Below, piece by piece: positions 14,309 through 34,637 of a DNA stretch of 64,000 nt (positions within the stretch are counted from its first letter, which is position 1; every line of letters begins with the position of its first letter). The notes beneath the pieces are model-generated. The model searched no databases. It was not told the origin of the DNA and saw nothing but the letters and a program-made list of their open reading frames with translations. This stretch comes from Candidatus Aenigmatarchaeota archaeon (GTDB taxonomy: Archaea > Aenigmatarchaeota > Aenigmatarchaeia > CG10238-14 > SCSR01). A program made the translations under genes and the position numbers. The DNA is taken from assembly GCA_016187415.1 (NCBI GenBank), contig JACPJT010000007.1, positions 68,821 to 132,820 on the forward strand, given 5' to 3'.

Positions 14309-14315
14309 TTAATGC

Positions 14316-14861: not shown

Positions 14862-15410
14862 TTATTTAATCTCCTTTGCCGCCGACATTGTCACTATCAA
14901 AAGAACAATGAAAAAGACAACAAACATTATTGTTACCACCAAAAGGTCCCCTGGCGCCTTGCTCGTGCTCAGCAGTGATCTAATTGGGTTTATGAGAAAT
15001 TCGGCCAGACCAACCGCGGCTGCGAATCCTAGGACAACCCACACGAGCCAACTTGCAGGCCCTTCCTTGAAAATGTCAGTCAGTTTTTCGCCCAGAGTAG
15101 GATAGAACAATCCGGATATAAGGAAACCGAATACAAGTGCTAAGATTATTATGACACCCTGTGTCAGGAATGATGTCAATGGAACTGTAAGACTTGTGCC
15201 CAAAATTACAGGAGAGCCAAAGACGAACAAACCTACAGCTATCGAAATTATTGCATGAAGCGCGACAGAATCGCCCAACAGTTGCGTCTTCCTGAGAACC
15301 GCATAAAGCACGGTTGAAAGCAAAATAAATGGCAATAGAAAATTATAGAATCCTATGCCGAGCAGTCTTTCAACGACAATCTGAAAAATATTAGCCATCT
15401 TATCTTTCAC
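14862..15410 (-). CDS. Membrane protein, paralog 1 of the tandem triplet
   Basis: Carries GIGFYNFLLPFILLSTVLYAVLRKTQLLGD. Its stop abuts the start of paralog 2. Confidence 0.45.
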   Translation of the reverse strand: MKDKMANIFQIVVERLLGIGFYNFLLPFILLSTVLYAVLRKTQLLGDSVALHAIISIAVGLFVFGSPVILGTSLTVPLTSFLTQGVIIILALVFGFLISGLFYPTLGEKLTDIFKEGPASWLVWVVLGFAAAVGLAEFLINPIRSLLSTSKAPGDLLVVTIMFVVFFIVLLIVTMSAAKEIK

Positions 15411-15430
15411 TTATTTGTTAAAATAAAAAT

Positions 15431-16078
15431 TTAAGCTTCCCTCTTAAGCCTTTGAACCAAGTCGGTCAACCCTCTTACAGATTCTATCAATGCGGGAAGG
15501 GTTTCCTTGAACGCCTTTTCCAAGCCGCTTATCCTTGTCTCAATGTCGCCCATGCTTTCCTTGAACGTCTCCATCTTGCTCAATATCTGCGTCTGCTCGG
15601 CATTTCTCAAATTCATTATTTCGCTTATCCTGTCGCTGACTTCCTGTACCCTTCTTCCGATTTCCTGTGCCCTTGCGCCGAACTCCGTGACCTCCTGGTT
15701 TATTTCACCCATTCTCGCTTGGACGACATAATCAACATATTCTTCTGTGGGGTAGCTTTGGTAGTTCTGGTAGTATTCCTGCGGCAGCGATGTTTCAGGC
15801 AGCTGGGTAGACCTTTCATGTTCCTTTGGCGTGATATCTTCCAGCGTAGGCAAGCTCGGTTCGTTTTTTTGCGATTGCTTGGGTTGCTCTGTCGTGGCAG
15901 CAAATTTCAAAGCTTCCGTAAGAGCGCCGTCAATCTCTTCAGGCGCATACCCCTCCTTTCTGAGGACATCTATAACTTCAACTTCCGAGAAACCTCGCCC
16001 AGTCAATTCCCTTACCCTTTCAATCGGTATGGAGCCTTTGCCTTTCTGCATGGGGTTGTTAAAAAACGGTAAAGCCAT
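15431..16078 (-). CDS. Coiled-coil protein with N-terminal helical (UBA-like?) domain
   Basis: MALPFF... N-terminus. Acidic, Gln-rich linker. C-terminal heptad-rich region. Confidence 0.35.
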   Translation of the reverse strand: MALPFFNNPMQKGKGSIPIERVRELTGRGFSEVEVIDVLRKEGYAPEEIDGALTEALKFAATTEQPKQSQKNEPSLPTLEDITPKEHERSTQLPETSLPQEYYQNYQSYPTEEYVDYVVQARMGEINQEVTEFGARAQEIGRRVQEVSDRISEIMNLRNAEQTQILSKMETFKESMGDIETRISGLEKAFKETLPALIESVRGLTDLVQRLKREA

Positions 16079-16191
16079 TATTCCACTATAACTAGTTTCG
16101 TTTTAAGTAACATAAATTTAAGCTTTTTCTCGATATATCGACAACAATACATTCTCTGGCTATAAATCCACAAACAACTATTCACAATGAT

Positions 16192-17019
16192 ATGATAGTC
16201 AAGAACAGAGATAGAGGACAATATACGTTTGCCAACATCAACCTTTTGGGTAGGTGCAATGCCGACTGTTATTTCTGTTTGGGAAAGGATATTGAAGACG
16301 AATTAAGAGACAAAAATCAATTAAATGTCCATTTTAGTGAATGGAAAAATTTCAGAAACTTCCTCAATAGATGTATGGATGAAGGAGCATCAAAATTGTA
16401 TTTAACAGGGCAGACTGCAGACGGACTTCAATATAGATATTTGAGCGAATTAGTAGATGCTTTACAAGCAGATAATTTTTCCGTTGGTGTAAGAACAAAC
16501 GGCTATTTGGCATTAAGAAAGATGAAGACCATACAAAGAATGAGAGGCGAAATTGGTTATTCTATTCATACGCTGGATCCCCAAACAAACAAATTCATAA
16601 TGGGCAGGTCAGATATACCAAAATGGGATGAAATCATCCCCCAGAGCGGACACAATGTTAGAGTTTCTATAGTTTTGAACAGATATAACATCGGTCAATT
16701 TTATGATTTGTGTGGGTACATCGCTCAATTTCCTAATGTAAGGTATATTCAGGTAAGAAGAATATCAACTGATACTCGTGAAAGTCTATTGATGGAAGAC
16801 ATAAAATTATATGAGGAATTCTTTAGAGATTTCGAAAAAACGCATAGGCAGATAGGTGACTTTCATCGTGCACAACAATTCAAATTATTTGGTAAAGAAG
16901 TTGTTTTTTGGAGGACGGTTGAAACCTCAGTAAATTCTCTTAACTATTTTACGGATGGAACTTGTAGCGACGAATATTTTATAGTTGAAGGGTATCTAAA
17001 AAATAGAATACCAAACTAA
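16192..17019 (+). CDS. Radical SAM domain protein
   Basis: CxxxCxxC cluster motif CNADCYFC lies near the N-terminus. Confidence 0.7.
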   Translation: MIVKNRDRGQYTFANINLLGRCNADCYFCLGKDIEDELRDKNQLNVHFSEWKNFRNFLNRCMDEGASKLYLTGQTADGLQYRYLSELVDALQADNFSVGVRTNGYLALRKMKTIQRMRGEIGYSIHTLDPQTNKFIMGRSDIPKWDEIIPQSGHNVRVSIVLNRYNIGQFYDLCGYIAQFPNVRYIQVRRISTDTRESLLMEDIKLYEEFFRDFEKTHRQIGDFHRAQQFKLFGKEVVFWRTVETSVNSLNYFTDGTCSDEYFIVEGYLKNRIPN

Positions 17020-17068
17020 GTTCACATTTGCTATGTTCTATGGACTGTTTTGAAAAAGCTGGGAAAAC

Positions 17069-17488
17069 CTAAACCCTTTTAATTTTTGCTGTCTTGTCTT
17101 CTATCATTTTTTCTACTTCGTCCTTGGTTGCAAATTTCGCGGTGATCGGGTTTATCAAATCTATGAATGTCTCCATCTCTTTAAATTCCCGTTTGGTGGC
17201 GGTCTTTGACAGTTCCTTGCCCAGTCTCAATATCTCCCCTTCAATACTCACCAATTTTTCCGACAGCGATACTATCCTATCGCTTATTTTTTCCAGTGAA
17301 AGTTTCAAATCATTCAGCTGCGTTAAAGTATTGTCTTCCAAGGCATCTACAGAATTTTCCACACGATCTACACGCTGTTCAATAATCCTTATCCGCCTTG
17401 TATTTTCGTTTAGCCTTTTCACAAGTTCGGTTATCAGTTCTTCCACGTTTCCGCCGTGTCTTTCAAATGGTAGTGTAGGCAATGCCAT
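17069..17488 (-). CDS. Coiled-coil protein (paralogous N-terminus to the 15431 ORF)
   Basis: MALPTLPFERHGG... followed by long heptad repeats. Divergently transcribed from the secretion ATPase. Confidence 0.35.
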   Translation of the reverse strand: MALPTLPFERHGGNVEELITELVKRLNENTRRIRIIEQRVDRVENSVDALEDNTLTQLNDLKLSLEKISDRIVSLSEKLVSIEGEILRLGKELSKTATKREFKEMETFIDLINPITAKFATKDEVEKMIEDKTAKIKRV

Positions 17489-17532
17489 TATAAAAGATTT
17501 GTTTAATCATGCAGATATAATAATTAGATAGA

Positions 17533-19770
17533 ATGGCTGTAGAGTACGAGGTTGTCAACGGCGCTTTGAGGATAAATTGTATGAACTGGGCAATACCGCC
17601 TAGCATAGAGGATTCGGACGCGACGATGGCTGTTGTAATAGACAAATTGCTCGAAGCCCGCGATGCGACCAGAGTGGTTTTGATTGAGGCCAGGGAAAAT
17701 GAATACGACGAAGACCAGACAAGAATGTTGCGCGAAATTGCGGACGCATATAACAGGATCATAAACGTCGACAAGATTCTCAGTTTGAAAAATCTTGGTC
17801 CGCCGCAATGCGAGAAACTTTACTCAAAGAGGCTGTCGGACCTGCAGTTTCTAGTTTTCGAAGTTCTCAGGAAAGACCCGATCGGGGCGTATCTAAGAAT
17901 AGTCAAGATGCTGAATGCAAACAATGTGTTGGAGAAGACGGCGCCGTTGGAACAGCGGGTGTGCTTCACCGACTATATCGACAATGCACTGGTGCCTATC
18001 AAACAAATTCTTGAAGGATGCACACTGATTCAGAAGACAATGCCGATTCTGCAAAATTATCAGGTTGGGAGCAGGGACATTTACCGTGAGCTGTTTTCGC
18101 CCGCAGTAAAGCCGAATTTCATGCTGACGAGATTCATGTTAAGCATTCCCAAAGGCGCAAGATTAATAGAGAAATATTCGATTTCAGGCGCCGATGTCGA
18201 AATTTATAAATTGCAAAACAAGGTCAGATACTTCTATCACATAATACCGCGTGAATTCATTCTTAGCGACGAAAAGTATTCCATTCTGGATTCGGCAAGG
18301 AGATATCTTGCAGCGCACAGGCCGACAGAAGCGGAGTCGGTAGAACCAGAAAAATCAAGGGAACTTTTCAAAACATTGGGACGGGATCTCGTGCGGGATA
18401 TAGCGAAAAGCACGGGAGTCGATCTGACATCGGCAGAGATAGAAGAGCTTGCGACAATCTTGGCGAGGTATACTGCAGGTTACGGCGTGCTCGAATTGCT
18501 TTTGTCAGACGAGAAAATCCAGGACATTTTTGTAAATTCACCGATAGGCTTGACGCCGATTTTCATCAACCATTCGGATTTTGAAGAGTGTGAAACAAAT
18601 CTCATGCCTACAAGCGAAGACGCGGATTCATGGGCGACGCGATTCAGGCTTAATTCAGGGAGGCCGCTGGACGAGTCCAATCCGGTGCTTGATACAGAAT
18701 TGACGGTTCCCAATGGCAGGGCAAGGGTAGCTGCGATAACAAGATCACTGTCGCCGGAAGGGTTGGCATTCGCTTTCAGGCGGCACAGGGACAAGCCGTG
18801 GACCATGCCGCTATTCATCAAGAATAAAATGTTCGATCCATTATATTCCGGACTGATGAGTTTCATCATAGACGGTGGCAGGGCGCTTCTTGTTGCCGGC
18901 GGAAGAGGTTCAGGAAAAACATCTGTACTGGCATCTTTGATGTTGGAAATAATGCCGAGATTCAGGGTCATCAGCGTGGAAGATACTCTTGAGTTGCCAC
19001 TTACATCATTGCGGCAGTTGGGATACAATGTAGAAAGAATGAAATCGCGGTCCGTAATAACAAGAGTTGAGACCGAATTGCCAGCGGACGAGGCGTTGAG
19101 AACAGCTTTGAGATTGGGAGATTCAGTTCTGATTATCGGCGAGGTCCGTTCTGTCGAATCGCTGGCGTTGTTCGAGGCGATGAGAATCGGTGCCATGGCA
19201 AATGTAGTTGCTGGCACCATACATGGCGAATCCGCTTACGGTGTGTATGACAGGGTCGTGCATGATCTTGGCGTGCCGCCGACAAGCTTCAAGGCATTGG
19301 ACTTGATCACTGTGTGCAATCAGTTGAAATCCCCGGACGGGTTGCACAGATTCAGGCGCGTCACGGAATTGACGGAAGTGAGAAAGCACTGGAAGGACGA
19401 TCCTTCTGAGGAAGGCGGTTTTGTCAATCTCATGGAATATTCCGCGAAGGAGGACAGGCTCAAGCCGACGGACACTCTGGTTGACGGCGAGACGCATGTG
19501 CTGAACGAGATTTCAAATAGGGTCAGGGAATGGAAAGGGCAGTGGGATGCTGTCTGGGACAACATTTTATTACGGGCAAAGATAAAAGAGACTATGGTGG
19601 ATTTTGCGAGCAGGCTGAACAAGAGCAGTATTCTGGAAGCCGATCATATCGTTATTTCCAATGCGATGTTCCATCTTATATCGGAGCAGGTGAGGCAGGA
19701 GGTAGGATCCATGGACTCGAAGATGATTTATGACAAATGGTTGGACTGGTACAAGAAGAGGGTCGGATAG
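17533..19770 (+). CDS. Type II/IV secretion-system ATPase (GspE/FlaI/VirB11 superfamily) with about 300-aa N-terminal extension
   Basis: Walker A LLVAGGRGSGKTSVLAS. Walker B/Asp box (VLIIGEVRS). His box present. 745 aa. Confidence 0.8.
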   Translation: MAVEYEVVNGALRINCMNWAIPPSIEDSDATMAVVIDKLLEARDATRVVLIEARENEYDEDQTRMLREIADAYNRIINVDKILSLKNLGPPQCEKLYSKRLSDLQFLVFEVLRKDPIGAYLRIVKMLNANNVLEKTAPLEQRVCFTDYIDNALVPIKQILEGCTLIQKTMPILQNYQVGSRDIYRELFSPAVKPNFMLTRFMLSIPKGARLIEKYSISGADVEIYKLQNKVRYFYHIIPREFILSDEKYSILDSARRYLAAHRPTEAESVEPEKSRELFKTLGRDLVRDIAKSTGVDLTSAEIEELATILARYTAGYGVLELLLSDEKIQDIFVNSPIGLTPIFINHSDFEECETNLMPTSEDADSWATRFRLNSGRPLDESNPVLDTELTVPNGRARVAAITRSLSPEGLAFAFRRHRDKPWTMPLFIKNKMFDPLYSGLMSFIIDGGRALLVAGGRGSGKTSVLASLMLEIMPRFRVISVEDTLELPLTSLRQLGYNVERMKSRSVITRVETELPADEALRTALRLGDSVLIIGEVRSVESLALFEAMRIGAMANVVAGTIHGESAYGVYDRVVHDLGVPPTSFKALDLITVCNQLKSPDGLHRFRRVTELTEVRKHWKDDPSEEGGFVNLMEYSAKEDRLKPTDTLVDGETHVLNEISNRVREWKGQWDAVWDNILLRAKIKETMVDFASRLNKSSILEADHIVISNAMFHLISEQVRQEVGSMDSKMIYDKWLDWYKKRVG

Positions 19771-20064
19771 ATGAGAGCTGTGGCCGTTCCGTACATCATA
19801 GCCATCGTTCTCGGCATTATCGTCATCGCCATAGTCGGATATCTGCTGTTCATGTCTTCCAACAATAGCATTTGCGCGGGAAAAGATGCCGAATGCCGCG
19901 GAAGAATTCTGGAGTGGTGCACAACAAAAACCGAATCTGCTAAACAGAAAATAAACGAAATATGCAGCTCATGCATCAAGGGTTTTGATTTTAAGGCAAA
20001 CGTATGCATCTTTTGCAAAACTGTTATACCAGGCTGGAATGACCAGGCTAATTGCGGTAAATGA
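19771..20064 (+). CDS. Small Cys-rich pilin-like protein (class III signal peptide candidate MRA|VAVPYIIAIVLG...)
   Basis: Starts 1 nt after the ATPase stop. N-terminal hydrophobic helix follows a basic residue plus Ala. 9 Cys in the C-terminal 60 aa. Paralog of the 24161 and 25518 ORFs. Confidence 0.5.
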   Translation: MRAVAVPYIIAIVLGIIVIAIVGYLLFMSSNNSICAGKDAECRGRILEWCTTKTESAKQKINEICSSCIKGFDFKANVCIFCKTVIPGWNDQANCGK

Positions 20065-20100
20065 TTCAAGTTTAATTCTTCCCAAACCAAATTTTAAATA

Positions 20101-22062
20101 ATGCCTGTAATCTCGCGCGAGTATAAGGAATTTTTAAAAGAGGAGGAACTGTCCAGAAGCCTGTCATTTTACGAAAGGCTGTGTCTGATTGCAGAAAAAT
20201 TCGCAGTCTTCCCGATGACCAAAGGCGTTGAGAATTCGTACAACGAAGCCATAAGTTTCTCGCATCTCAATGTCAAGCCGAAAGGCGCGTATTCTCTGGC
20301 GTTCCTTAGTGTATTGGGTATCATCCTAGCCTTCGTGGGTTTCACGATTTTAATCAACTCATTTTCTTTTGCTTCTGTAGTCCTTTCGCTTTTGTTGGCC
20401 GGCATAGCATTTTATTTTGTCGTCAGCTACCCGACGCATCACGCCACAGTGTTCAGGATCAACGCATCGTCCGAAATGGTCTTGGCGACAATTTACATGA
20501 GCATAGCGATGCACATCTCCCCGAATCTGGAGAATGCCGTCAGGTTCGCCGCCAGAAACCTCAAAGGGTCGTTGGCGACAGACCTTAGGGTATTGTTATG
20601 GGAGGTCTACACAAGAAAATATGAAAAAATAGAAGACGCTCTGGATTACTTTATTAAAAAGTGGGAGCGGGACAGCAAGGAGTTCACAGAATCCATATAC
20701 CTGATTAAAAATTCGACTGCAGAATCCCAGGAGAAACGAGAAAGGTTTTTGGACGAAGCGGTAACCGTGATGTTGGACGGCACCAAGGAAAAAATGAGGG
20801 ATTATTCGCGCCAATTGAAAGAACCTGTCACAATCCTAAATGCCATGGGAATACTGCTGCCGATAATAGGCCTGGTTTTTTTTCCCATCATGACCATATT
20901 CCTGCCGGGGCTGATCAAGCCATTGTTCTTGATACTGGGATATAATGTCTTCCTTCCGTTGATTGTCTTCCTTTTCATGAACAGTTATTTGGAGAGCAGG
21001 CCATACAGCTTCCACCAGCCCGACCTGAGCATACACCCGGATTTCATTGTTACAAAGTTATATGAAAGACCATATACGATACCGTTGCTGCTTTCGCTCC
21101 CGTTGATAGGTTTAGGACTGGCTGGCATACTTGGCGAAACGGAAGTTTTCAGTTTTCCCGCTCTGATGTATTCCATGCTAGTTACTCTGGGGATATTGCT
21201 TGGAATAATTTCATATAGCTATCTTTCAGTCAAGCGAAAACTGAAGATAAGGGACGAGATTACGGCAATCGAGACCGAATTTTCAGAGGCGCTATTTCAG
21301 CTGGGAAATATGCTGTTACGCGGCATACCTTTTGAGACTGCATTGAAAAAAACCAAAAATGAAATCAAGAATCTAAAAATATCGCAATTCTTCAACAAAA
21401 TATCCTACAATATAGAAACTTTCGGCATGACATTTGAAAACGCAGTATTCGACAAGCAGTCCGGCGCAATAAATTATTACCCGTCCAACATAATAGCGTC
21501 GATAATGCATGTCGTGGTTGAGACTTCCAAAAAGGGCATGCAAAGCGCGTCAAAATCAATGATCATAGTCTCGAAATATCTCAAGGACATGCACGAGGTT
21601 GACGAGGAACTGAAGAGCCTTCTGGAGGAAGTGTCATCGACAATGAACATACAGGCGGTTCTGTTGGCTCCTCTAAGCGCGGGCGTTGTCGTCACCATAG
21701 CCACTGTCATGACACGTCTTCTGGTAACCTTGGGCAAGACATTCAGCCAGGTGTATTCCAACATCGGTATCCCGCTCGGTTCGCCGAACGAAGTAGGCAC
21801 CAGCGCGCTGTCGTCAATAGCGAACATAAGTTCTATCTTACCAATCCATTTCTTCCAGCTTGTTGTCGGCGTGTATTTGGTGGAGATAGTGACGATAATC
21901 GCAATCACGCTAAGCACCATCACAAACGGCGAAGAGACCCTGCTGAAAAGATTTTCAATAGCAAAGACACTTCTTTACAGCGGTGCGGTTTACTTCATAA
22001 CGCTTCTGTTCACTTACTACATGTTCACTTCGGTGATATCTTTGGACAAGTTATTAACATAA
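20101..22062 (+). CDS. Polytopic membrane protein, candidate pilus assembly platform (TadC/FlaJ/PilC-like)
   Basis: 653 aa. Cytoplasmic helical domains alternate with TM clusters. It sits directly after the ATPase and pilin genes. Domain identity is not verifiable by eye. Confidence 0.5.
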   Translation: MPVISREYKEFLKEEELSRSLSFYERLCLIAEKFAVFPMTKGVENSYNEAISFSHLNVKPKGAYSLAFLSVLGIILAFVGFTILINSFSFASVVLSLLLAGIAFYFVVSYPTHHATVFRINASSEMVLATIYMSIAMHISPNLENAVRFAARNLKGSLATDLRVLLWEVYTRKYEKIEDALDYFIKKWERDSKEFTESIYLIKNSTAESQEKRERFLDEAVTVMLDGTKEKMRDYSRQLKEPVTILNAMGILLPIIGLVFFPIMTIFLPGLIKPLFLILGYNVFLPLIVFLFMNSYLESRPYSFHQPDLSIHPDFIVTKLYERPYTIPLLLSLPLIGLGLAGILGETEVFSFPALMYSMLVTLGILLGIISYSYLSVKRKLKIRDEITAIETEFSEALFQLGNMLLRGIPFETALKKTKNEIKNLKISQFFNKISYNIETFGMTFENAVFDKQSGAINYYPSNIIASIMHVVVETSKKGMQSASKSMIIVSKYLKDMHEVDEELKSLLEEVSSTMNIQAVLLAPLSAGVVVTIATVMTRLLVTLGKTFSQVYSNIGIPLGSPNEVGTSALSSIANISSILPIHFFQLVVGVYLVEIVTIIAITLSTITNGEETLLKRFSIAKTLLYSGAVYFITLLFTYYMFTSVISLDKLLT

Positions 22063-22078
22063 AATCCGAAATAAAATT

Positions 22079-22191
22079 ATGCGTAAAGCCCAAATTGAAT
22101 CCAAGATGATATGGATTATTATCATGTTGGCTATAGCATTGCTGGTAATCCTGGCGGCGTACGGCTCGACACAATTATTCAAGGGCGGATA
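22079..22191 (+). CDS. Tiny pilin-like ORF (37 aa, MRKA|QIESKMIWIIIML...)
   Basis: Basic-Ala followed by a hydrophobic helix. Not in the ORF track because it is shorter than 60 aa. Confidence 0.2.
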
Positions 22192-22194
22192 AAA

Positions 22195-22377
22195 ATGGAC
22201 AAAGGGACTTTCAGTTTGGGGATGGGTATCATAGTGTCGCTAGTACTCGCGTTTATAGCACTGATTCTCATCTGGTACTTTCACGAAAAGATTTTTGCCG
22301 TCTTTAGCGGTTTATTGCTGGAAGGACTGAAAGGTTACATGTGCAGCCTTATTCATGTGCCGTTCATATGCGGATGA
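22195..22377 (+). CDS. Small pilin-like ORF (60 aa, MDKG|TFSLGMGIIVSLVLAFIALI...)
   Basis: Internal start of the 22111 ORF. KG followed by a hydrophobic helix. Confidence 0.3.
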   Translation: MDKGTFSLGMGIIVSLVLAFIALILIWYFHEKIFAVFSGLLLEGLKGYMCSLIHVPFICG

Positions 22378-22411
22378 AATCGTTTTATTATTATTCCACC
22401 AAGTAATATCA

Positions 22412-24109
22412 ATGTCTAAAGCAGCTGTTAACGTTGTGGTTGCAATTGTTTTGGGGGTTCTTGTCATAGCCATCGGCGGTAGTCTTTTGCTCCAAACGCC
22501 GTCTCTTTGGAACAACATTCTTGATTTTTTGAAGGGGAAAGTAGCAGATTTTTTCATTCCGTCAGAAGGAAAGGCGCTGCATATAAAAGTCCATAGAGTT
22601 TCGCAACCAACATTACCGGTGATAGGATCACTACTAACAACTCCGATTAAAACAAGTACAGTAGACGAGGTATGGGATTTCAGACTATTCGACAAAACGG
22701 CATCTAAAAAAGTACTTTCCGGTAACGGTCAATATTTCATGATAGACACGAACTCGGTTACTAATAATTGTCTTTTATATATCACAGACGTGAGGGATAC
22801 AATAGTAGGTTCGCGTGATAAAGGATTTATAATTTATGTTAAACCAGGCGCTTATATCGACTATACCAGTCAGTCATTGTCTAACACGATTCCAACAAAT
22901 TTTATAGATTCATCTAAAACTGGATGTTTGATTGGATGGGGGACAGACGCAAATTGCAATCTTTGTCACACAGTTAAAGATGTCACTTGCCCATTCCCGA
23001 GTTTTCTGACTTTAGATACCCAATGCGTTGAAAATGCTAAATGCGAAGGTAAAAAAAATTACATCATTTGCAACCCATCTGATTTATACACCGGGTTTGC
23101 AAACGGATGCATAGGTTCGAATGAAGGCATGACCCCCTTAACTAATGCTATGAACATAGCATTCAATTCTTATTTGCCATCAAATAGTTGGAAAGAAACA
23201 TGCCAGAACGGGGGATGCGGTCTTTTGTCAGGCGACAAAGCCAGTCCAACATTCCAAGTCAAATACGGCCTTGTATGTTCGGACGGCGGCACATGGAAAG
23301 TATGTAAAAATCCGAAAGATAGTACAGCTTTTGTCAACAACCAAAAAATCGATTGTCTTCCATCTGGAGACCATTTCGATTGGAATAGAGTTTCCATAAA
23401 TCAGGCGTTGGGTATATCGTCACCCGCACCGCTACAAAAACCAGCTCTAATTTCGCCACTAGACGCTTCTGTAGTAGAACCGAGTACTGCTATCGGACCG
23501 TCTTCGCTTAACTTAGAATGGATGCAAGTATCTGGTGCACTTTCATATAAGTGGTACGTGAATGAAAATCCGAATAGACAAGAAAATGGAGAAAAGGTCG
23601 GTAGTTGTATCAAGCCAAACTCGAATAGTTTGGAATTAGATTATGCGACTGGAGAGCAATTTATGGTAGTTAGATCAAGTGCCCTGGAGACGCCGTTATC
23701 AGGTTCAGCTAAGACGTGGTTTTGGTCTGTAGAAGCCTGTGAAACCGACTCGTGCAATACATGCAGTGGTTATGCGCAAGAAAGAAGTTTCAAGACATCA
23801 AGCCTGGTTGTAACACCAACCACAATTCCAGTAAATACACCGATAAAAATCTCTATGGAGGCTATTGGTGATAATGTTGATCAGATATCTAGATTAACTG
23901 TAAACTATGGTGGTAAGTGGAATGACTGTTATTGCGACGGTTCAGTTCCGGGAAAAGCGTGTACGCAGTCGAATCCAACACAGTGCAGTAATACATGGGA
24001 TACAACAGAAACCACCATAGGAGCACATACGTATTATGGTAAAGTCTTTTATAGCAACGGAAAAGATGTAGATACACTGCCCAGCCAGATCAGCGTAACC
24101 GTACAATAA
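22412..24109 (+). CDS. Large Cys-rich pilin-like/adhesin protein (class III signal candidate MSKA|AVNVVVAIVLGVLVIAIGG)
   Basis: Probable start is M at 22412 within ORF 22355..24109. About 565 aa with more than 25 Cys in an extracellular region rich in Asn/Ser/Thr. Confidence 0.5.
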   Translation: MSKAAVNVVVAIVLGVLVIAIGGSLLLQTPSLWNNILDFLKGKVADFFIPSEGKALHIKVHRVSQPTLPVIGSLLTTPIKTSTVDEVWDFRLFDKTASKKVLSGNGQYFMIDTNSVTNNCLLYITDVRDTIVGSRDKGFIIYVKPGAYIDYTSQSLSNTIPTNFIDSSKTGCLIGWGTDANCNLCHTVKDVTCPFPSFLTLDTQCVENAKCEGKKNYIICNPSDLYTGFANGCIGSNEGMTPLTNAMNIAFNSYLPSNSWKETCQNGGCGLLSGDKASPTFQVKYGLVCSDGGTWKVCKNPKDSTAFVNNQKIDCLPSGDHFDWNRVSINQALGISSPAPLQKPALISPLDASVVEPSTAIGPSSLNLEWMQVSGALSYKWYVNENPNRQENGEKVGSCIKPNSNSLELDYATGEQFMVVRSSALETPLSGSAKTWFWSVEACETDSCNTCSGYAQERSFKTSSLVVTPTTIPVNTPIKISMEAIGDNVDQISRLTVNYGGKWNDCYCDGSVPGKACTQSNPTQCSNTWDTTETTIGAHTYYGKVFYSNGKDVDTLPSQISVTVQ

Positions 24110-24160
24110 CGCAAAATGCTTAAATATAATCCAAAACAAATATTAAATCAAGTGAAATTA

Positions 24161-24442
24161 ATGAAGAAAGCCGTTGCAGTCCCTTATATCATAGCCATCG
24201 TTCTCGGTATTGTTGTTATAGGACTTATTGGTTATTGGTTGTTCTTTTCCGGAGGAATTTTGGGAACAAATGCGTCAGAAACAAGATGCAATTCAGATGT
24301 GTTGAACTTCTGTAATACTATGCTCTCAGGTCAGACGGCAACAAAGGACTGGAAACAAACCGATAGTTGTAAAGGTGTAGGAAAATACGCTAGCCTATCC
24401 GCTTCCGATTGCAGGGCGCTCGGAGTTAACATACCAGGTTAA
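24161..24442 (+). CDS. Small Cys-rich pilin-like protein (MKKA|VAVPYIIAIVLGIVVIGLIGYW)
   Basis: Internal start of ORF 24116..24442. The N-terminal 20 codons are nearly identical, even at nucleotide level, to ORF 19771. Confidence 0.5.
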   Translation: MKKAVAVPYIIAIVLGIVVIGLIGYWLFFSGGILGTNASETRCNSDVLNFCNTMLSGQTATKDWKQTDSCKGVGKYASLSASDCRALGVNIPG

Positions 24443-24483
24443 CATACCAAATTCATTTCTTTAAGAAACTAATAATCTTATAC

Positions 24484-24540
24484 ATGTCCAAAGCGGTAGC
24501 TGTCCAAGCTATCTTCCTGATAATTGTCATATTTAAATAA
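24484..24540 (+). pseudogene. Truncated relic of the small pilin-like family (MSKAVAVQAIFLIIVIFK*)
   Basis: 18-codon ORF. It is nearly identical at nucleotide level to the first 16 codons of ORF 25518. Confidence 0.4.
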
Positions 24541-24563
24541 CAACCGTCATAATTTTATTACAT

Positions 24564-25103
24564 ATGTTACAAAATTATAACAAGTGGTCTGTGCTAAAAA
24601 TATTTTTTGATGACCCGTACCCGAAGGGAGACGGATTTCAACTACGAGAAATCAGTAGAAAGGTGAGATTGTCTACACCTTCTGTCAAAAAATACCTCAG
24701 CGAGTTGGTAAAAGAAGAGCTTATTATAAAATCTAAGCACCGGATACACGATTACCCATTATACACCGCTAATAGGGACAGCGAGAAGTTCCTCTTCTTG
24801 AAAAAAATCGACAATTTAATGTCTTTGGAAGAATCTGGTCTGTTAGAATTTCTGGAAAGAGCGTGTACGCCTGATGCAATAATTCTTTTTGGTTCTGCGT
24901 CTAGGGGGGAAGATACAAAAGTCAGTGATATAGATTTGTTTTTGCTGTGCAACGAAACTAGTCTTGATCTATCAGAATACGAAAAAAAGCTAGATAGGAA
25001 AATAAATTTGCTTTTCGCAGAGAATTTCCATGGTCTTAGCAAAGAACTCCGAAATAATATAATGAACGGTATAATATTGAAGGGGTATTTGAAGGTGTTT
25101 TAA
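24564..25103 (+). CDS. Minimal nucleotidyltransferase (MNT, Pol-beta superfamily) with N-terminal wHTH, antitoxin-like
   Basis: GS-x9-DxD motif LFGSASRGEDTKVSDIDLFL. Confidence 0.7.
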   Translation: MLQNYNKWSVLKIFFDDPYPKGDGFQLREISRKVRLSTPSVKKYLSELVKEELIIKSKHRIHDYPLYTANRDSEKFLFLKKIDNLMSLEESGLLEFLERACTPDAIILFGSASRGEDTKVSDIDLFLLCNETSLDLSEYEKKLDRKINLLFAENFHGLSKELRNNIMNGIILKGYLKVF

Positions 25104-25516
25104 TGCATGATGGATTGATAAAAATAAGGCCAGATAAATATAGAGCCAAGTCCGTCCTTAAAATGAGTGAAACTACTCTGGAGATGATTAGAAGTATAGA
25201 CTCAAAGAAATTTCCCTCTATTATAATAAAAGAATATTATGAAGTCATAAGAAGTTTGATTACTGCTATTTTAATAGCAGACGGTTTTAAAACAGAAGGC
25301 GAAGGCGCGCATAAGAAGCTTATAGAGTATCTAAATTCGAACTACAAAGAATTTTCCCAATATGAGATTTCAACTATAGACAATCTTAGAATAATGAGAA
25401 ACAAGATAGCCTATGAAGGATTTTTTGTGAACGAGTCCTACCTAAAGAGAAAGAAAGAACTTATATCTACAATAATAGAGAAACTGGAAAAAATATTAAA
25501 GGAGAAACTTATTTAA
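25103..25516 (+). CDS. HEPN-domain protein (toxin partner of MNT)
   Basis: 137-aa helical protein. Its start overlaps the MNT stop (TAATG). Classic HEPN/MNT pair arrangement. Confidence 0.5.
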   Translation: MHDGLIKIRPDKYRAKSVLKMSETTLEMIRSIDSKKFPSIIIKEYYEVIRSLITAILIADGFKTEGEGAHKKLIEYLNSNYKEFSQYEISTIDNLRIMRNKIAYEGFFVNESYLKRKKELISTIIEKLEKILKEKLI

Positions 25517-25517
25517 C

Positions 25518-25784
25518 ATGTCCAAAGCCGTTGCAGTCCAAGCGATTTTCCTAATAGCAGTAATAGCAATTACTTTACTGTTCGTCTTGGCAATATTCTG
25601 GGGATGGATTGACACCACGAAACTCGGCACAAGCCAGGCAACATGTTCCGCCAAAAAGGTCAGCTATTGCAGCAGCATCTTGAACGACAGGCCGAAACCA
25701 TTCGTCTGGAACACTAAAGAGCCAATCAACTGCGACCAATTCGGAATAAAAAAACCGATTAATAAAGCAGATTGTCAGCAATAA
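25518..25784 (+). CDS. Small Cys-rich pilin-like protein (MSKA|VAVQAIFLIAVIAITLLFV)
   Basis: Paralog of the 19771 and 24161 ORFs. Confidence 0.5.
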   Translation: MSKAVAVQAIFLIAVIAITLLFVLAIFWGWIDTTKLGTSQATCSAKKVSYCSSILNDRPKPFVWNTKEPINCDQFGIKKPINKADCQQ

Positions 25785-25808
25785 TTTAACGGAAAACAAA
25801 ATAATATC

Positions 25809-26189
25809 ATGAAAGCAAGTGCTGTCACAGAGGCAATCACCCTTGTAGGCGTGGTAACCGTAAGCGTCATGATGTTTTCCCAGGTGCCGGGCATAATCAC
25901 TGATATGAAGATTGTATTGTCAAAAGAGTCGTCTCTTTCAAAAGTGAAGGAAATATCAAGCCTGATAAGCATAGCCAGCAGTTCTCCGTCCGATATGAAA
26001 ATAGTCTACGACCTGAAGGAAAAGTCAAGCGTGTCATCGAAGGACGGCATACTGACTCTGACAACGTCCAAAGGCACGATTTCGTACAAGACCCTGAGCG
26101 ACCTGAAGGATTTCACAAAAGTTGATGTCGACAAACTTACTATAATTAAAACCATACAAGACGGGAAAGTAACAGTCGAGGTTATTTAA
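25809..26189 (+). CDS. Pilin-like protein (MKA|SAVTEAITLVGVVTVSV)
   Basis: Class III-like N-terminus. Ser-rich beta-type C-terminal domain. Confidence 0.45.
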   Translation: MKASAVTEAITLVGVVTVSVMMFSQVPGIITDMKIVLSKESSLSKVKEISSLISIASSSPSDMKIVYDLKEKSSVSSKDGILTLTTSKGTISYKTLSDLKDFTKVDVDKLTIIKTIQDGKVTVEVI

Positions 26190-26695
26190 TGAAGGCGCAG
26201 GCTTACATAGAGCAACTATTTTCAATCATGATGGCAGGCGTTGTCGTGCTGACATTCTCTTTGATAATCCCGAGCCAGGCCACCAAGATAATGCCCGAGG
26301 TCGAACAGGAGGAGTTGGAAGGCAGGGCGATCAATTTGGCAAACATAATCATGTCACACCCCAGCTTGGTTTATTCCGATGGCGTGACTTACTACAGGGG
26401 AGATTTTGATGCAAATAAGCTGGACTCGAATCCTTCAATAGATTTATTTTATCCAGGCAGTTTTTCAAAAGTCACGATAAAGGATTCGGTTACCGGAAAG
26501 GAATGGTCATTCAAGTTAATCGATAAAAAAAGCGATTCGGCAACCGCCTTCTCAAATTGTTTTGAAAGAACACAAGACATCAGCCAGTGCAATCCAAACA
26601 TGTTTTCTACAATAATGTCCAAAGGATTTCCAATCAACATAATGTATTCGGACAAGGCTGATCGAGGCATCATTACAGTTGTTGTGGTGGAATGA
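26189..26695 (+). CDS. Pilin-like protein (MKAQ|AYIEQLFSIMMAGVVVL)
   Basis: ATGA overlap with the upstream gene. Confidence 0.45.
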   Translation: MKAQAYIEQLFSIMMAGVVVLTFSLIIPSQATKIMPEVEQEELEGRAINLANIIMSHPSLVYSDGVTYYRGDFDANKLDSNPSIDLFYPGSFSKVTIKDSVTGKEWSFKLIDKKSDSATAFSNCFERTQDISQCNPNMFSTIMSKGFPINIMYSDKADRGIITVVVVE

Positions 26696-27183
26696 AAGGA
26701 CAATTGACCGGCTCGCCGGTTTTCATGGGTCTGATAGTGGTAGTCTCATTGATAGTGATCATCGTCACGCCACCGTCTGTAATCAAGGTAACTATTGACA
26801 AGGAAACCGCATTCACATATAATCTGGAAAATGTCCACCACACAATACTTTCAATTCTGTCCAACAAGGAGATGTACGAAAAGATTGGCATAGACATCAC
26901 AATTGACACAGGAACAAACCTTGATGCGATTGAAGGATTGCTAAAGGACCAATTTACAAACGGATATTGCATGTCCATATTCCGGCCAAGCACGACATTC
27001 ACAACCTATGCGATTCTTACCGGCTACGAAAATATACCTACAGCAAGTTCTCTGGGAACGTTGAAGACACTCTTGGGGAATTGCGCGTCGCTTGATGCTG
27101 GCTCCAATACAATCTTGGTTTTGCCTTACAGGCCGCCAGACAAAAATAACCTAGTTGAAATTATTAGGGTTGGTAAAAAATGA
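26692..27183 (+). CDS. Pilin-like protein (MKGQ|LTGSPVFMGLIVVVSLIVIIV)
   Basis: ATGA overlap with the upstream gene. Confidence 0.45.
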   Translation: MKGQLTGSPVFMGLIVVVSLIVIIVTPPSVIKVTIDKETAFTYNLENVHHTILSILSNKEMYEKIGIDITIDTGTNLDAIEGLLKDQFTNGYCMSIFRPSTTFTTYAILTGYENIPTASSLGTLKTLLGNCASLDAGSNTILVLPYRPPDKNNLVEIIRVGKK

Positions 27184-28232
27184 AAGCGAATGTGGCACTA
27201 GTTGCGCTGGTTTCCATAGCAAGCGTTTTGACAATAGTCGGCGTCTTTTCTTTCAGCATAGCGTATCAAACAGACACGGTTGAAAGGAGCATAAAGGAAC
27301 GCGGGATGATAGAGGTAATAAACCAGGTTGAATTTATCAAAGCGGCATTGCACCATGCGGTAGACTATTCTGTATACCAGTCGGCATACGAACTTTCCAA
27401 ATACGGGGGATACGACAGTTGCACAGTACCAGATGCGGGAGGGTTCAAGACGGATTTGCCGTATTGGAGGATACGTGACGCATGCTCCACGGACCAGTTC
27501 AAGGACAAGCTATCGAAAAGAGTAAATGAATTGTACCAACTCTACCTCAGTGCGATAAACAAGAAACTGGTTGGAGGTAACTTCCAGATACCAGACTATT
27601 CACCGCCCCAGATAAATGTTTTGGAGAATTCGTTGGATATTCTTGCGCAGGCTAAAGATAAAATTAATTTTAAAAGTTCAGATACGGGGCTTTCTGATAA
27701 CGGGGATATAAAAGAAAGTGTGAGAATCGAATTGGGAAAATTATTGTCAACAGGCGATCAGCTGTTCGTCCAGAGGGACGCTGTAGGGGATAAAATAAAT
27801 GGTGCAGAAAGCTCTATGAGCGGCAGTTGCAGGAGCACATATCAGGACGTATGCGGTTCGGCATATGCGGTAGCGATACCACCCTCTCAAGAATGCGTTT
27901 CACAATTTGCGTCTAACGTAAAATCCAGCATCAAGACTTTGGAAACCGAGACACAGGATTTGAAATTAACATTCTCGGATGATGATATCAAGGCAAAATA
28001 CGCAACACCGATAAAAAAGGATCCTGCCATAGCCATAGGCACCTGCAGTTGTTCGGATGAAGGTTGCTCAACATTATACAGAATTACATTCACGTATCAT
28101 TACATAGCCAGTGCAGACATCAAGGCAAGCATATCGGGCGATAAGATATATCCCGTGTTTGACAATGTCGACCAGAAAGCTGGCCTTAGGAATCTGGAAT
28201 TAAATTTCCGCGTCTTTTCTGAAAACAAATAG
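27180..28232 (+). CDS. Larger pilin-like protein, 350 aa (MKA|NVALVALVSIASVLTIVGVF)
   Basis: ATGA overlap with the upstream gene. Several Cys in the extracellular part. Confidence 0.45.
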   Translation: MKANVALVALVSIASVLTIVGVFSFSIAYQTDTVERSIKERGMIEVINQVEFIKAALHHAVDYSVYQSAYELSKYGGYDSCTVPDAGGFKTDLPYWRIRDACSTDQFKDKLSKRVNELYQLYLSAINKKLVGGNFQIPDYSPPQINVLENSLDILAQAKDKINFKSSDTGLSDNGDIKESVRIELGKLLSTGDQLFVQRDAVGDKINGAESSMSGSCRSTYQDVCGSAYAVAIPPSQECVSQFASNVKSSIKTLETETQDLKLTFSDDDIKAKYATPIKKDPAIAIGTCSCSDEGCSTLYRITFTYHYIASADIKASISGDKIYPVFDNVDQKAGLRNLELNFRVFSENK

Positions 28233-28239
28233 TATTTTC

Positions 28240-30228
28240 TCAGCCGGCGTTATATTTGCAAATGCCATCGGCCCAAGTGCATTTCGATGATGATAATTTG
28301 TTGCAGTCATCCTGATTGAAGTTCTCGCATATAGGATATACTGCCAACGACTTTGTATCATCTATAGATCTGGTGGGGCAATAATACGGCAGAGACGAAT
28401 ATTGGTTATTTAACTCCCGTGCTTTTTGGTAATCTTCATTCGCAGATATCGTTAATTTCTTAACATCGGGTGATGTCGATTGAATTTGCGAGTACGTGTA
28501 ATCAATGTCAACTTTGACAGGCACTGTTTTTGATGGTCCGGTGACCTGGGAACTTGCAGAATCTTTAACATTTACATCGCAGGCAACGCTAACACTTCCC
28601 TTCCCAATTGATAATCCAACAGGCTTGGCGCAACTTGTTAAAGTAACACTTCCATCACTCAACAAGTTAATTTCTTTATCTTTCTCCAGCTTTGTCAAAT
28701 CTTTATCGTTAACAAAAACAGAAGTTGTAGTAACAATGCCATCGCCATCATTCCTAATATCTATGAACATTTTTTTGGCTATGCTTTTCCCGTCGAATGT
28801 ATGAATGCTTGGAACAAAATACGTTGTAACAGTGACGGGTCCTGCACTGCTTTTTATAGTCGGCGTTAATGCAGGTTTTGGTGCGGTTTTAGCTAAAAAG
28901 AATGCTCCACTGCCTTCCACACTGAAATCATAGGTCGACTTTAATTCTACCGTCGCCTTATCATTATCGGTGAAACAAAGGTTGTCCATAATGTTATAAT
29001 ATTGGTTCAATGTGCAATCACAGCTATTTTCGCCTGCATTATATCTATATTGTGCTACATCAACAGAACTTGCCACATCGGGCTTGATGGAATATTTGTA
29101 ATAGAATAAGTTCAGTGCATCCACACATGCTTGGCTACTCTTTGCTGCCTGATCGTTGTTGCATACTTTCTTAGCCTGGTCCTGATTTATGCCTTTAACA
29201 CTGACGCTTGACGGATAAAGTGGAACAAAACTCGGATCACCACCTACAACTTTTCGACAATCTATCTTATTTGTAAAGTCTATGGACACTGATCTTTCTT
29301 CTTCGGGTGAAATGTCGCCAATGCTAATTTTGCCGCTAGGCACACTACCGCACAATATCCTCTTGGTGCCGGTTCCGCTGTTTATGAAAATATTGCTGAT
29401 CGCGAAATTCTTCACAACCAATTTGGTGTCAATTTTATTCGGGTTTATGACAGAAACAGGCAGTACATAATCCAGTCTTGCGAACAATGTCGGCAACGAA
29501 TAGCTGTTGTCTCTGCTTCCAAATTTCAACTGAATTGCTTCAAATCCGCCCACCTTTTCAACTTTCGGCGTTAGTCCTGATGCCGATTGGATACATGCCG
29601 ATAATCCAGACGGCGATAAAACGTTTTTCATGTAGCAGGAGAATGTGTCTAATAATTCACCTATCTTACCAGTGGGGGATATTATGCGGCTCAACTCACC
29701 AGAATTAACCGTCCATCCAGTGGCAAATATCAGCATGAAAATTATTAATATCGTTCCGAAGCCAGTTGTGAAACTGCGTTTCGCAAGCAATAGGGCAATC
29801 CAGAAAGCCGTTGCTGCCGTAAACACATCTATTATGAAGCCGCTAAAGTTAGTCAGACTTGGTAATATGGTAGAAAGAATTAAGGATGCAACGCTTACAA
29901 GCCCGTCCCTGAATAAGGGCGATATCGAAAATATTATCAGTTCGAATATAATGGTGTATAAGATAGTTTTAATAATTTTCGCCGTATCGATTCCACCGCT
30001 AACCTTTGAAGACTTGTTAAGAAAGTCTAAAATTTTATTTTCTTCAGCCTTTTCAGGATTGGCGCTTTTCCCAGTATTTTGATTTTTCGACCATTTTTCA
30101 TATTCCCACTGGCCAAAAAGATCGTTAATTTTCTGCTTGTCAGCACCAGATTTCGCAAGCATGTCATTGGCGTCACCCCACCTTCCCGATAAGTACAGTT
30201 CTTTAGCTTTGTCTTCTATGTCCGCCAT
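28240..30228 (-). CDS. Membrane protein: cytoplasmic N-terminal region, 4 TM, then roughly 450-aa extracellular Cys-containing domain
   Basis: 662 aa. Convergent with the pilin operon. Confidence 0.4.
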   Translation of the reverse strand: MADIEDKAKELYLSGRWGDANDMLAKSGADKQKINDLFGQWEYEKWSKNQNTGKSANPEKAEENKILDFLNKSSKVSGGIDTAKIIKTILYTIIFELIIFSISPLFRDGLVSVASLILSTILPSLTNFSGFIIDVFTAATAFWIALLLAKRSFTTGFGTILIIFMLIFATGWTVNSGELSRIISPTGKIGELLDTFSCYMKNVLSPSGLSACIQSASGLTPKVEKVGGFEAIQLKFGSRDNSYSLPTLFARLDYVLPVSVINPNKIDTKLVVKNFAISNIFINSGTGTKRILCGSVPSGKISIGDISPEEERSVSIDFTNKIDCRKVVGGDPSFVPLYPSSVSVKGINQDQAKKVCNNDQAAKSSQACVDALNLFYYKYSIKPDVASSVDVAQYRYNAGENSCDCTLNQYYNIMDNLCFTDNDKATVELKSTYDFSVEGSGAFFLAKTAPKPALTPTIKSSAGPVTVTTYFVPSIHTFDGKSIAKKMFIDIRNDGDGIVTTTSVFVNDKDLTKLEKDKEINLLSDGSVTLTSCAKPVGLSIGKGSVSVACDVNVKDSASSQVTGPSKTVPVKVDIDYTYSQIQSTSPDVKKLTISANEDYQKARELNNQYSSLPYYCPTRSIDDTKSLAVYPICENFNQDDCNKLSSSKCTWADGICKYNAG

Positions 30229-30279: not shown

Positions 30280-30759
30280 TCAGGTTCTTTTCAGTTCAAT
30301 GCTTCTTCTCAAGTGCTTGATATCGTCGTCCATTTTATCTATTTGTTTATGATAAGACGCGGATTCATGCGTTTTGCCGGTGCGGTCGGCCTTTTCAAGT
30401 TTTTCCAGTAGTTTCGCCCTTTTCTTTTCCAGGTCTTCCAGTTTCGCCCACTCGTCTCTCCAATCGCGCCCCTTTCTGATGCTGAACATAATGATACCTA
30501 TGACGAACAGCATGGAGAACGCCGCTATGACTGTTGTAGCACCAAAATACACAGCCAACTCAGACAGCCAGATGAAAATAGGGTTGTTTGCGATAAGCAC
30601 AGCCAGTGCCAGAGAGATAATTATGTTGATGTTGTTGCTGAATATCTTGATTAGCCTTAGCGAGCCGTAAAGCAGGAGGAAAACAAAAAGGAACGGTACG
30701 ACTAGTTTGTAAAGAACATCAGGGAACGGAAGCTGTATCAATTCTTCTAACGGCATCAA
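30280..30759 (-). CDS. Membrane protein with charged C-terminal coiled coil
   Basis: 3 TM followed by EWAKLEDLEKKRAKLLEKLEKADRT.... Confidence 0.35.
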   Translation of the reverse strand: MMPLEELIQLPFPDVLYKLVVPFLFVFLLLYGSLRLIKIFSNNINIIISLALAVLIANNPIFIWLSELAVYFGATTVIAAFSMLFVIGIIMFSIRKGRDWRDEWAKLEDLEKKRAKLLEKLEKADRTGKTHESASYHKQIDKMDDDIKHLRRSIELKRT

Positions 30760-33794: not shown

Positions 33795-33899
33795 ATGGGG
33801 TCTAAGGGATTTGAACCCTTATCATTCGGTGTCTTCTTTCATCTGTTGTCAATTCTCCATGACAAAAAGTCTGGAGCCGAACGTTCTGACCAGGTTAAA
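33786..33899 (-). tRNA. tRNA-Trp (anticodon CCA) with a canonical 37/38 intron of about 40 nt
   Basis: Reverse complement gives acceptor GGGGTCT/AGACCCC + A73, anticodon stem TTCGG/CCGAA, loop CTCCAG|intron|A, and T-arm AGGGT-TCAAATC-CCTTA. The intron contains CATGGAG, complementary to the anticodon loop (BHB-forming). Confidence 0.65.
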
Positions 33900-33933
33900 C
33901 CAAGACCCCCTATTGTTAAAAATAAAAGTCAAT

Positions 33934-34557: not shown

Positions 34558-34637
34558 AGGTGGGAATTGAACCCACGACCTTCCGCTTGCCTGTGATGAC
34601 TACAGGGCGGGTGCTCTACCGTCTGAGCTACTGTGGC
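34552..34637 (-). tRNA. Intron-containing tRNA, possibly Thr (UGU); anticodon assignment uncertain
   Basis: Reverse complement gives acceptor GCCACAG/CTGTGGC + U73, D-arm GCTC..GAGC, and T-arm GTGGG-TTCAATT-CCCAC. It is about 13 nt longer than a standard tRNA between the D- and T-arms. A CCTGT/ACAGG hairpin, consistent with an intron, lies within the anticodon region. Confidence 0.5.

Follow-up and report, generated by a model that had tools for sequence, protein, structure and literature searches.

Does a 64-kb stretch of a Candidatus Aenigmatarchaeota genome (contig JACPJT010000007.1; the whole stretch of 64,000 nucleotides is called the window here) encode a machine that assembles surface filaments, and if so, of which kind? 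The question is raised by a run of plus-strand genes at 17533-28232, in which an assembly ATPase, a polytopic membrane protein and a series of proteins with pilin-like N-termini follow one another. Overall, we find that this run is a genuine type IV pilus-like (type IV filament, TFF) assembly locus outside the archaellum family, and that it is the local representative, in Aenigmarchaeota, of a DPANN-wide locus in which coiled-coil genes accompany a CpaF-type ATPase and a TadC-type platform, a kind that has already been published. It quite probably encodes a type IV pilus (T4P)-like assembly machine of the sort conserved across "cluster 2" DPANN. Two genes form the core of the locus:

17533-19770, plus strand: assembly ATPase of the FlaI/GspE2/CpaF group, 745 aa (Pfam, NCBIfam, PDB, Foldseek).
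20101-22062, plus strand: platform protein, 653 aa, about nine transmembrane (TM) segments, divergent T2SSF/TadC/PilC-like (TM count, T2SSF matches of the family, Foldseek).

An earlier inspection of this DNA without database searches, which we call the sequence-only reading, had named both of them as a GspE/FlaI-type ATPase and a polytopic platform-like protein. The ATPase matches the Pfam family T2SSE with 59 bits (cutoff 24.9), as that reading had expected from a profile search, and so represents the ATPase of the TFF superfamily. Its best PDB sequence match is Archaeoglobus fulgidus GspE2 (afGspE, 2oap; E=1e-29), followed by CpaF (5e-21) and FlaI (3e-15). Foldseek likewise returned 2oap, 4ii7 (FlaI) and 8rjf (CpaF/TadA, represented also by 9e24) at probability 1.0, with matches to the core only. 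The Walker A/B, Asp-box and His-box motifs are shared with GspE2, FlaI and CpaF, and their residues are invariant across 25 relatives of the window ATPase. Unlike these proteins, the window ATPase carries an additional N-terminal domain, and it scores far under the cutoffs of the specialised NCBIfam models: 124 bits against 373 for TadA (TIGR03819), 121 against 550 for FlaI and 57.8 against 1000 for BasE (NF053672).

The size of this N-terminal extension had to be corrected from roughly 300 to about 190 residues, because afGspE residues 26-440 align to ATPase residues 207-642 (FlaI residues 127-413 align to 317-617). AlphaFold 2 (AF2) predicted residues 1-190 confidently, with predicted local distance difference test (pLDDT) values per block mostly of 80-95 (range 68-95), as a small alpha/beta unit (1-58) followed by a helical bundle (60-175). 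Foldseek found no structural relative of this domain. Searching 1.84 billion representative proteins at E<=1e-3 retrieved it in 228 clusters; among the best 150 of these 228 matches, its position is almost always N-terminal. The domain is specific to this ATPase family. According to a 2026 census, ATPase N-terminal domains differ between TFF subsystems. Inteins that include a LAGLIDADG endonuclease occur in some orthologs of the ATPase, which are about 1265 aa long (P0066, P0075, P0088, P0105 and P0106).

The assignment of the platform required comparison at the family level. Taken alone, the window protein gives a sub-threshold match to Pfam T2SSF (E=0.066, residues 398-525 in the C-terminal half), while 14 of 30 members of its family match T2SSF, the best with E=8e-8. 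In the ortholog from the Nanohaloarchaea genome SG9, the T2SSF match lies in the N-terminal half, unlike the weak C-terminal-half match of the window protein. The sequence-only reading had named a lack of T2SSF domains in this gene as an observation that would speak against it; because other family members and the Nanohaloarchaeal ortholog match T2SSF, the platform cannot be said to lack them. A profile of the platform family found nothing significant among PDB sequences (GspF only at E=1.7); therefore a fold comparison was needed, and the Foldseek matches at probability 0.99-1.0 were counted as support for the T2SSF-type assignment. Relatives of the platform are single open reading frames (ORFs) of conserved length (645-705 aa). 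The locus thus holds a polytopic GspF/PilC/TadC (T2SSF) platform of the TFF superfamily.

A machine with one ATPase and one platform could also act in DNA uptake, as a competence-like filament importing DNA or nucleotides from the host or the environment into a symbiont with a reduced genome. DPANN pili have been proposed to import DNA (PMC9563170), a suggestion from the literature only, and the single ATPase resembles the bifunctional CpaF. Nevertheless, no ComEC-, ComEA-, DprA-like or nuclease gene lies in or beside the locus, and the sequences show no feature specific to DNA binding, so that we give this explanation hardly any credence.

We then quantified how far the locus is conserved. 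Relatives of the ATPase occur in at least 592 species of the Genome Taxonomy Database (GTDB; one genome per species was scanned), and in the best 80 loci, which were kept, the match extends over almost all of the protein, with 49-84% identity. The carriers belong to Aenigmatarchaeota, Nanohaloarchaeota (including the complete genomes SG9 and M3_22), Woesearchaeota, Nanoarchaeota and Asbonarchaeum. When the window proteins were compared by tblastn with 83 related loci (labelled L001 onward), the platform was matched in 67, the coiled-coil proteins of 139 aa and 215 aa in 52 and 54, and the three tandem 5-TM paralogs in 29-37. The order 5-TM paralogs, 215-aa coiled-coil gene, 139-aa coiled-coil gene, ATPase, platform is kept from Aenigmarchaeota to Nanohaloarchaeota and Woesearchaeota, and gene order is the same in L001, L002, L003 and L006. 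Coiled-coil genes stand beside the ATPase and platform in L001-L003, L006 and L061 as well. In L001-L003 and L061 (Aenigmarchaeota; Nanohaloarchaea SG9), even the upstream flank is shared, with a TYW2/Trm5 methyltransferase gene and a TP_methylase gene; a synteny of this depth across phyla is unusual.

The putative substrates of the machine are nine ORFs on the plus strand, listed here with a slash after the leader:

19771-20064, plus strand: p97, mini-pilin, 97 aa, MRA/VAVPYIIAIVLG..., 8 Cys (motif; paralogous family with three invariant Cys).
22195-22377, plus strand: p60, small pilin-like protein, 60 aa, MDKG/TFSLGMGIIV... (N-terminal motif).
22412-24109, plus strand: p565, large Cys-rich pilin-like protein, MSKA/AVNVVVAIVLG..., 22 Cys, candidate adhesin (motif).
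24161-24442, plus strand: p93, mini-pilin, 93 aa, MKKA/VAVPYIIAIVLG..., 4 Cys (motif; family alignment).
25518-25784, plus strand: p88, mini-pilin, 88 aa, MSKA/VAVQAIFLIAV..., 4 Cys (motif; family alignment).
25809-26189, plus strand: p126, MKA/SAVTEAITLVGV..., first of an overlapping four-gene block (motif; Kyte-Doolittle hydropathy 1.45; Glu at +5).
26189-26695, plus strand: p168, MKA/QAYIEQLFSIMM..., 1-nt overlap with p126 (motif).
26692-27183, plus strand: p163, MKG/QLTGSPVFMGLIVVV..., ATGA overlap (motif).
27180-28232, plus strand: p350, MKA/NVALVALVSIASV..., 8 Cys, ATGA overlap (motif).

The small pilin-like gene p97 does begin straight after the ATPase, one base past its stop codon, and the 565-aa Cys-rich protein is present as the sequence-only reading had described it. 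That reading had counted at least ten more prepilin-type ORFs; only eight follow the platform (the starts from 22195 to 27180), making nine with p97. All nine N-termini fit M-x(0-2)-[KR]-[GA] followed by 26-35 residues that are uncharged, except for an optional Glu near +5. A rule-based check found a basic leader, Gly or Ala at -1 and a hydrophobic helix of about 20 residues, as in class III signal peptides, in 9/9. When the whole window was scanned for such N-termini in all six frames, seven of the strongest matches fell within 19771-28232. Sec and lipobox signals elsewhere in the window have short hydrophobic regions, unlike the pilin-like N-termini. The translational coupling via ATGA that had been claimed was seen as 4-nt overlaps at 26692 and 27180, and 1-nt TAATG overlaps occur at 26189 and 25103.

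The same signal is concentrated in the relatives. Across 82 related loci, with matches inside platform genes left out, class-III motifs occur at 3.0 per 10 kb downstream of the ATPase on the same strand versus 0.28 elsewhere, an enrichment of about 11-fold. Within these related loci MKG is the dominant leader, and it recurs in Aenigmatarchaeota, Nanohaloarchaeota and Woesearchaeota. The three short proteins p97, p93 and p88 form one paralogous family with a conserved N-terminal helix and three invariant Cys, present in 2-4 copies per locus, and they are the best candidates for the bulk subunit.

One may ask whether the downstream ORFs are pilins at all. They might be ordinary proteins of the membrane or surface, anchored by their N-terminus (type II), that undergo neither processing nor polymerisation, with the ATPase and platform serving another substrate. 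Such a reading would draw on three facts: the ORFs match no curated pilin model, the window lacks a prepilin peptidase, and the sequences evolve so fast that tblastn detected them in only 3-8 of the 83 loci, all of them the closest relatives. However, a simple anchor would not need the [KR]-[GA] that directly precedes the hydrophobic stretch in every one of the nine proteins. The recurrence of the MKG leader in three phyla, the tight operon coupling of the ORFs to the ATPase and platform and the conserved helix of the mini-pilins speak against this reading as well. We therefore consider unprocessed anchors highly improbable and keep to pilins as substrates.

Homologs of p60 (70-75 aa, with MRKA and MKG leaders) stand at the same position in L001 and L002, and so do positional homologs of p565 with 622-827 aa and 24-36 Cys; p565 itself gave only a weak Big_7 match in Pfam. 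L001 encodes a homolog of p350 at 51% identity, and in the place of p163 (19924-22086 of L001) a 720-aa protein with a glycoside hydrolase family 5 (GH5) cellulase domain. Across relatives, p565 and the genes of the overlapping block hold their positions but differ widely in size. Among 48 large pilin-like ORFs of related loci, LamG, C-type lectin and I36/beta-gamma-crystallin domains were found in single cases, the rest having no Pfam match. Judged from these sequences, the pattern would fit a shared pilin stem that bears variable heads with adhesive or enzymatic roles.

Heads of this sort also bear on another explanation, that of a display or secretion system resembling a bindosome or a type II secretion system (T2SS). 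Here the ATPase and platform would build no long adhesive pilus but a short pseudopilus or membrane-proximal scaffold, made of the small pilin-like proteins, and this would anchor or export the larger proteins with class III signals (lectins, glycosidases, Cys-rich proteins) for substrate scavenging. In relatives, the pilin-like N-termini that are fused to domains of the GH5 cellulase, LamG, C-type lectin and crystallin-like kinds agree with it, as does the weak BasE match of the ATPase. The BasE score, however, is far under its cutoff and lower than the TadA and FlaI scores, the locus contains no solute-binding-protein or ABC-transporter genes, and few of the large pilin-like proteins scanned have an enzyme or lectin head. 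Adhesins and enzymes located at a tip fit a true pilus equally well. Display or secretion is thus unlikely in our judgement, and we retain the reading of an assembled pilus.

The four coupled pilin-like genes p126 to p350 suggest a further comparison. GspH-I-J-K and FimU-PilVWX are minor-pilin operons of the bacterial T2SS and T4P. By analogy with them, the block of four genes of increasing size may resemble a priming or tip complex. The block shows no detected sequence similarity to those operons, and Glu5 is not conserved in its relatives. Since the homologs of p126 and p168, the two proteins that have Glu5, do not keep it, we rejected this residue as a pilin hallmark.

A second group of pilin-like genes lies elsewhere in the window:

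52491-56174, minus strand: four pilin-like genes in one operon, with leaders of the MKG or MKA form and overlaps of 4 nt; Laminin_G_3 domains in two of them, a DUF7289-type pilin N-terminus together with a weak TafC match in one.

No ATPase or platform gene adjoins this operon. The machine of 17533 and 20101 may serve it in trans.

Several observations weigh against the reading as a pilus assembly locus. The ATPase core was poorly modelled by AF2, with pLDDT below 50 over most of residues 448-662, and the internal duplication expected of the platform went undetected when its N- and C-terminal halves were compared by sequence (hhalign). Curated pilin models (Pfam Pilin_N and Class_IIIsignal) matched 0/9 N-termini, p126 and p168 are only moderately hydrophobic, and 13 of 46 related loci with a full downstream flank gave no motif match. 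No prepilin peptidase was found in the window by a Pfam scan of multi-TM ORFs or a six-frame scan for GxGDxK-type motifs, and a motif scan of 27 further multi-TM ORFs from the 83 related loci was negative too. Because the peptidase is absent from the window and, by motif, from the related loci, processing of the pilins is unproven. Archaeal PibD is commonly unlinked to the pilus locus (PMC4858521). Finally, no filament has been observed for Aenigmarchaeota, and function is inferred from context only.

The conserved unit extends upstream of the ATPase, on the opposite strand. The sequence-only reading had missed this half (13640-17488, minus strand) and began its range at 17069, so that the first ORF in it (17069-17488) is a minus-strand coiled-coil gene. 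The upstream genes are:

13640-14308, minus strand: 5-6-TM protein, 222 aa, first of three tandem paralogs (TM count); 31 of 83 loci by tblastn; no Pfam or NCBIfam match.
14316-14861, minus strand: 5-TM paralog, 181 aa; 37 of 83 loci by tblastn, 27-57% identity.
14862-15410, minus strand: 5-TM paralog, 182 aa; 29 of 83 loci; no Pfam match.
15431-16078, minus strand: coiled-coil protein without TM segments, 215 aa, weakly FlaC-like.
17069-17488, minus strand: coiled-coil protein, 139 aa, divergent from the ATPase gene; matches of coiled-coil type only.

Wherever the 181-aa paralog has a relative, it precedes the ATPase and is read from the other strand; in L001-L003 and L006, the 139-aa gene is the immediate upstream neighbour of the ATPase gene. 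The 215-aa protein has weak Pfam matches to FlaC_arch (E=0.0016) and DUF7310, and its SG9 ortholog matches FlaC_arch at E=4.5e-6. Its gene corresponds to the "CCP" genes of Hamm et al. 2024. A radical-SAM ORF (16192-17019, plus strand), with a counterpart in 0/83 related loci, lies between the two coiled-coil genes, and L001 has a PIN/MazE pair at a comparable slot between its own two. The slot appears to accept insertions. Downstream, a 662-aa protein with four TM segments and a large extracellular domain (28240-30228, minus strand) converges on the operon end, and a further paralog of the 5-TM family (30280-30759, minus strand) adjoins its gene.

An insertion, likewise missed before, interrupts the pilin genes between p93 and p88:

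24564-25516, plus strand: MNT nucleotidyltransferase (179 aa) and HEPN-like ORF (137 aa), with a 1-nt overlap (Pfam Polbeta/NTP_transf_2; NCBIfam MntA).

L006 carries the pair at the same position (47-48% identity), and it is absent from L001 and L004. It is a type VII toxin-antitoxin-like pair embedded in the operon, neither pilins nor part of the machine.

Which known system does the locus represent? As the sequence-only reading had stated, the window has no PibD/FlaK (peptidase A24), archaellin, FlaH or FlaCDE/FG genes; within the locus and window, the only thing approaching them is the weakly FlaC-like coiled coil. We rejected the archaellum on these absences and the low FlaI score, and, unlike FlaI systems, the window ATPase stands without FlaH, FlaJ or archaellin partners. 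The Sulfolobus bindosome (Bas) was rejected on the BasE score. A bacterial Tad/Flp pilus was set aside with the TadA score, the single platform gene, the lack of Flp and secretin, and the archaeal host. Archaeal TFF system 1 (the methanogen Epd type), whose platform consists of two genes in the 2026 census, differs from the single 653-aa platform ORF found here.

The minimal plan of an ATPase, a platform, several pilins with class III signals and, here presumably, an unlinked prepilin peptidase is that of the adhesive pili of euryarchaea and crenarchaea, namely the Aap, Ups, Epd and haloarchaeal PilA pili (PMC4858521). Unlike Aap and Ups, the locus has no recognised partners of the AapX/AapE/AapF or UpsX type. 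Its pilins differ from those of all four systems in lacking matches to the curated models and in having heads with conserved Cys, and this type of locus has FlaC-like coiled-coil genes and 5-TM paralogs of its own. The mismatch to Ups, Aap and Epd that had been remarked earlier is therefore fair, but the novelty drawn from it was overstated, as the DPANN-wide locus is already described in Hamm et al. 2024. Of the earlier label "non-archaellum, adhesive-pilus-type", the first part is supported in the form of a type IV pilus-like system, whereas adhesion can only be inferred.

Hamm et al. 2024 (Nat Commun) described two T4P-like loci with CpaF, TadC and coiled-coil proteins that are conserved across cluster-2 DPANN, with Aenigmarchaeota explicitly included; filament proteins (FlaF, PilA) were annotated in Locus 1 only, and proteomics detected several locus proteins in Ca. 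Nanohaloarchaeum antarcticus (PMC11291902). The window locus shares with these loci the CpaF/FlaI-type ATPase beside a TadC-like platform, the adjoining coiled-coil genes, and the presence in Aenigmarchaeota, Nanohaloarchaeota, Woesearchaeota and Nanoarchaeota. Because GroEL, GatE and Mpg, the markers of Locus 1, are absent from the window locus and from SG9, it is most likely the other of the two. In Ca. Nanohaloarchaeum antarcticus, NAR1_01710, a 1249-aa intein-bearing FlaI-type ATPase, adjoins the coiled-coil protein NAR1_01690 (PMC11291902, Fig. 4); behind it come small ORFs without annotation and one of 628 aa (PMC11291902 supplement). The window locus type resembles this arrangement in its small downstream ORFs and, in some lineages, its intein-bearing ATPase variants, a likeness at the level of layout. 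Other surveys have touched on such systems: Makarova et al. 2016 classified archaeal T4P with DPANN represented by Nanoarchaea only (PMC4858521), Makarova et al. 2019 foreshadowed the locus by noting DPANN T4P islands with "dark matter" signal-peptide proteins that are probably pilins (PMC6393860), and for most Aenigmarchaeota metagenome-assembled genomes Li et al. 2021 recorded homologs of "FlaG, FlaI, FlaJ".

What the analysis shows is the homology and fold of the ATPase and platform, the clustered N-terminal motifs and the synteny across DPANN; signal-peptide processing, filament formation, the split into major and minor pilins and adhesion are proposed on that basis. Taken as a machine, the locus would work as follows. 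A hexameric ATPase of the FlaI/GspE2/CpaF type, with its family-specific N-domain, would dock on the single TadC/PilC-like platform, pull pilins out of the membrane and polymerise them into a surface filament. The nine pilin-like proteins would be its substrates, their leaders of 3-4 residues being cut by a PibD-type peptidase presumably encoded elsewhere in the genome. The mini-pilins, of about 90 aa and with conserved Cys, are the likely bulk subunits. The p126-p168-p163-p350 block and p565 are likely minor or tip pilins, which may carry lineage-variable binding or enzymatic heads for attachment to host cells or surfaces. The two coiled-coil proteins, predicted to be cytoplasmic and FlaC-like, and the tandem 5-TM paralogs would be conserved accessory parts.

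The surroundings of the locus consist of housekeeping genes (topoisomerase VI, RadA, RPA, S-adenosylmethionine synthetase, tRNA-splicing endonuclease, M50 proteases), and the archaeal signal recognition particle RNA lies at 50804-51072. Further features of the window are:

325-2445, plus strand: 706-aa protein, 11 TM segments, WWDPGH motif, no Pfam match at E<=0.01; it looks like an AglB/STT3 oligosaccharyltransferase.
33796-33909 and 34552-34637, minus strand: two tRNAs, one of 114 nt, found by Rfam and missed by ARAGORN; both probably contain introns.
39639-40598, plus strand: free-standing LAGLIDADG ORF near the tRNAs.
40555-41193, plus strand: tRNA-splicing endonuclease gene near the tRNAs.
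56183-58039, minus strand: predicted surface protein, 618 aa, immunoglobulin-like domains (Big_13, Big_7).
59972-64000, plus strand: predicted surface protein of more than 1342 aa, six LVIVD repeats and LamG, running past the window end.

Since the locus type is already published, the value of these results is incremental. What is new is the pilin inventory with its leader motif, the family of mini-pilins with conserved Cys, the conserved genes upstream and the revised extent of the ATPase extension; the nine class-III-type ORFs, the mini-pilin family, the 5-TM paralogs and the embedded MNT/HEPN pair go beyond the description of Hamm et al. A locus whose pilins lacked annotation thereby gains concrete candidate filament subunits, and the leader motif, mostly MKG, can be used for mining pilins in other DPANN genomes. 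On its upstream side, the conserved unit now takes in two coiled-coil genes and a family of 5-TM paralogs.

More tentatively, the locus could represent a distinct, unclassified and DPANN-specific subsystem of the archaeal TFF superfamily, one that would build the host-contact filament of these symbionts, with fast-evolving minor-pilin heads (lectin, GH5, Cys-rich) setting host or substrate specificity; we would not yet expect this to hold. Its defining features could then be the ATPase N-domain, the FlaC-like coiled coils, the 5-TM paralogs, the ultra-short MKG leaders and the Cys-conserved mini-pilins. Outside the housekeeping genes, the ATPase-platform pair belongs to the most conserved genes of these reduced genomes, at the identities given above across phyla, which makes it a prime candidate for the machine by which DPANN archaea attach to their hosts.

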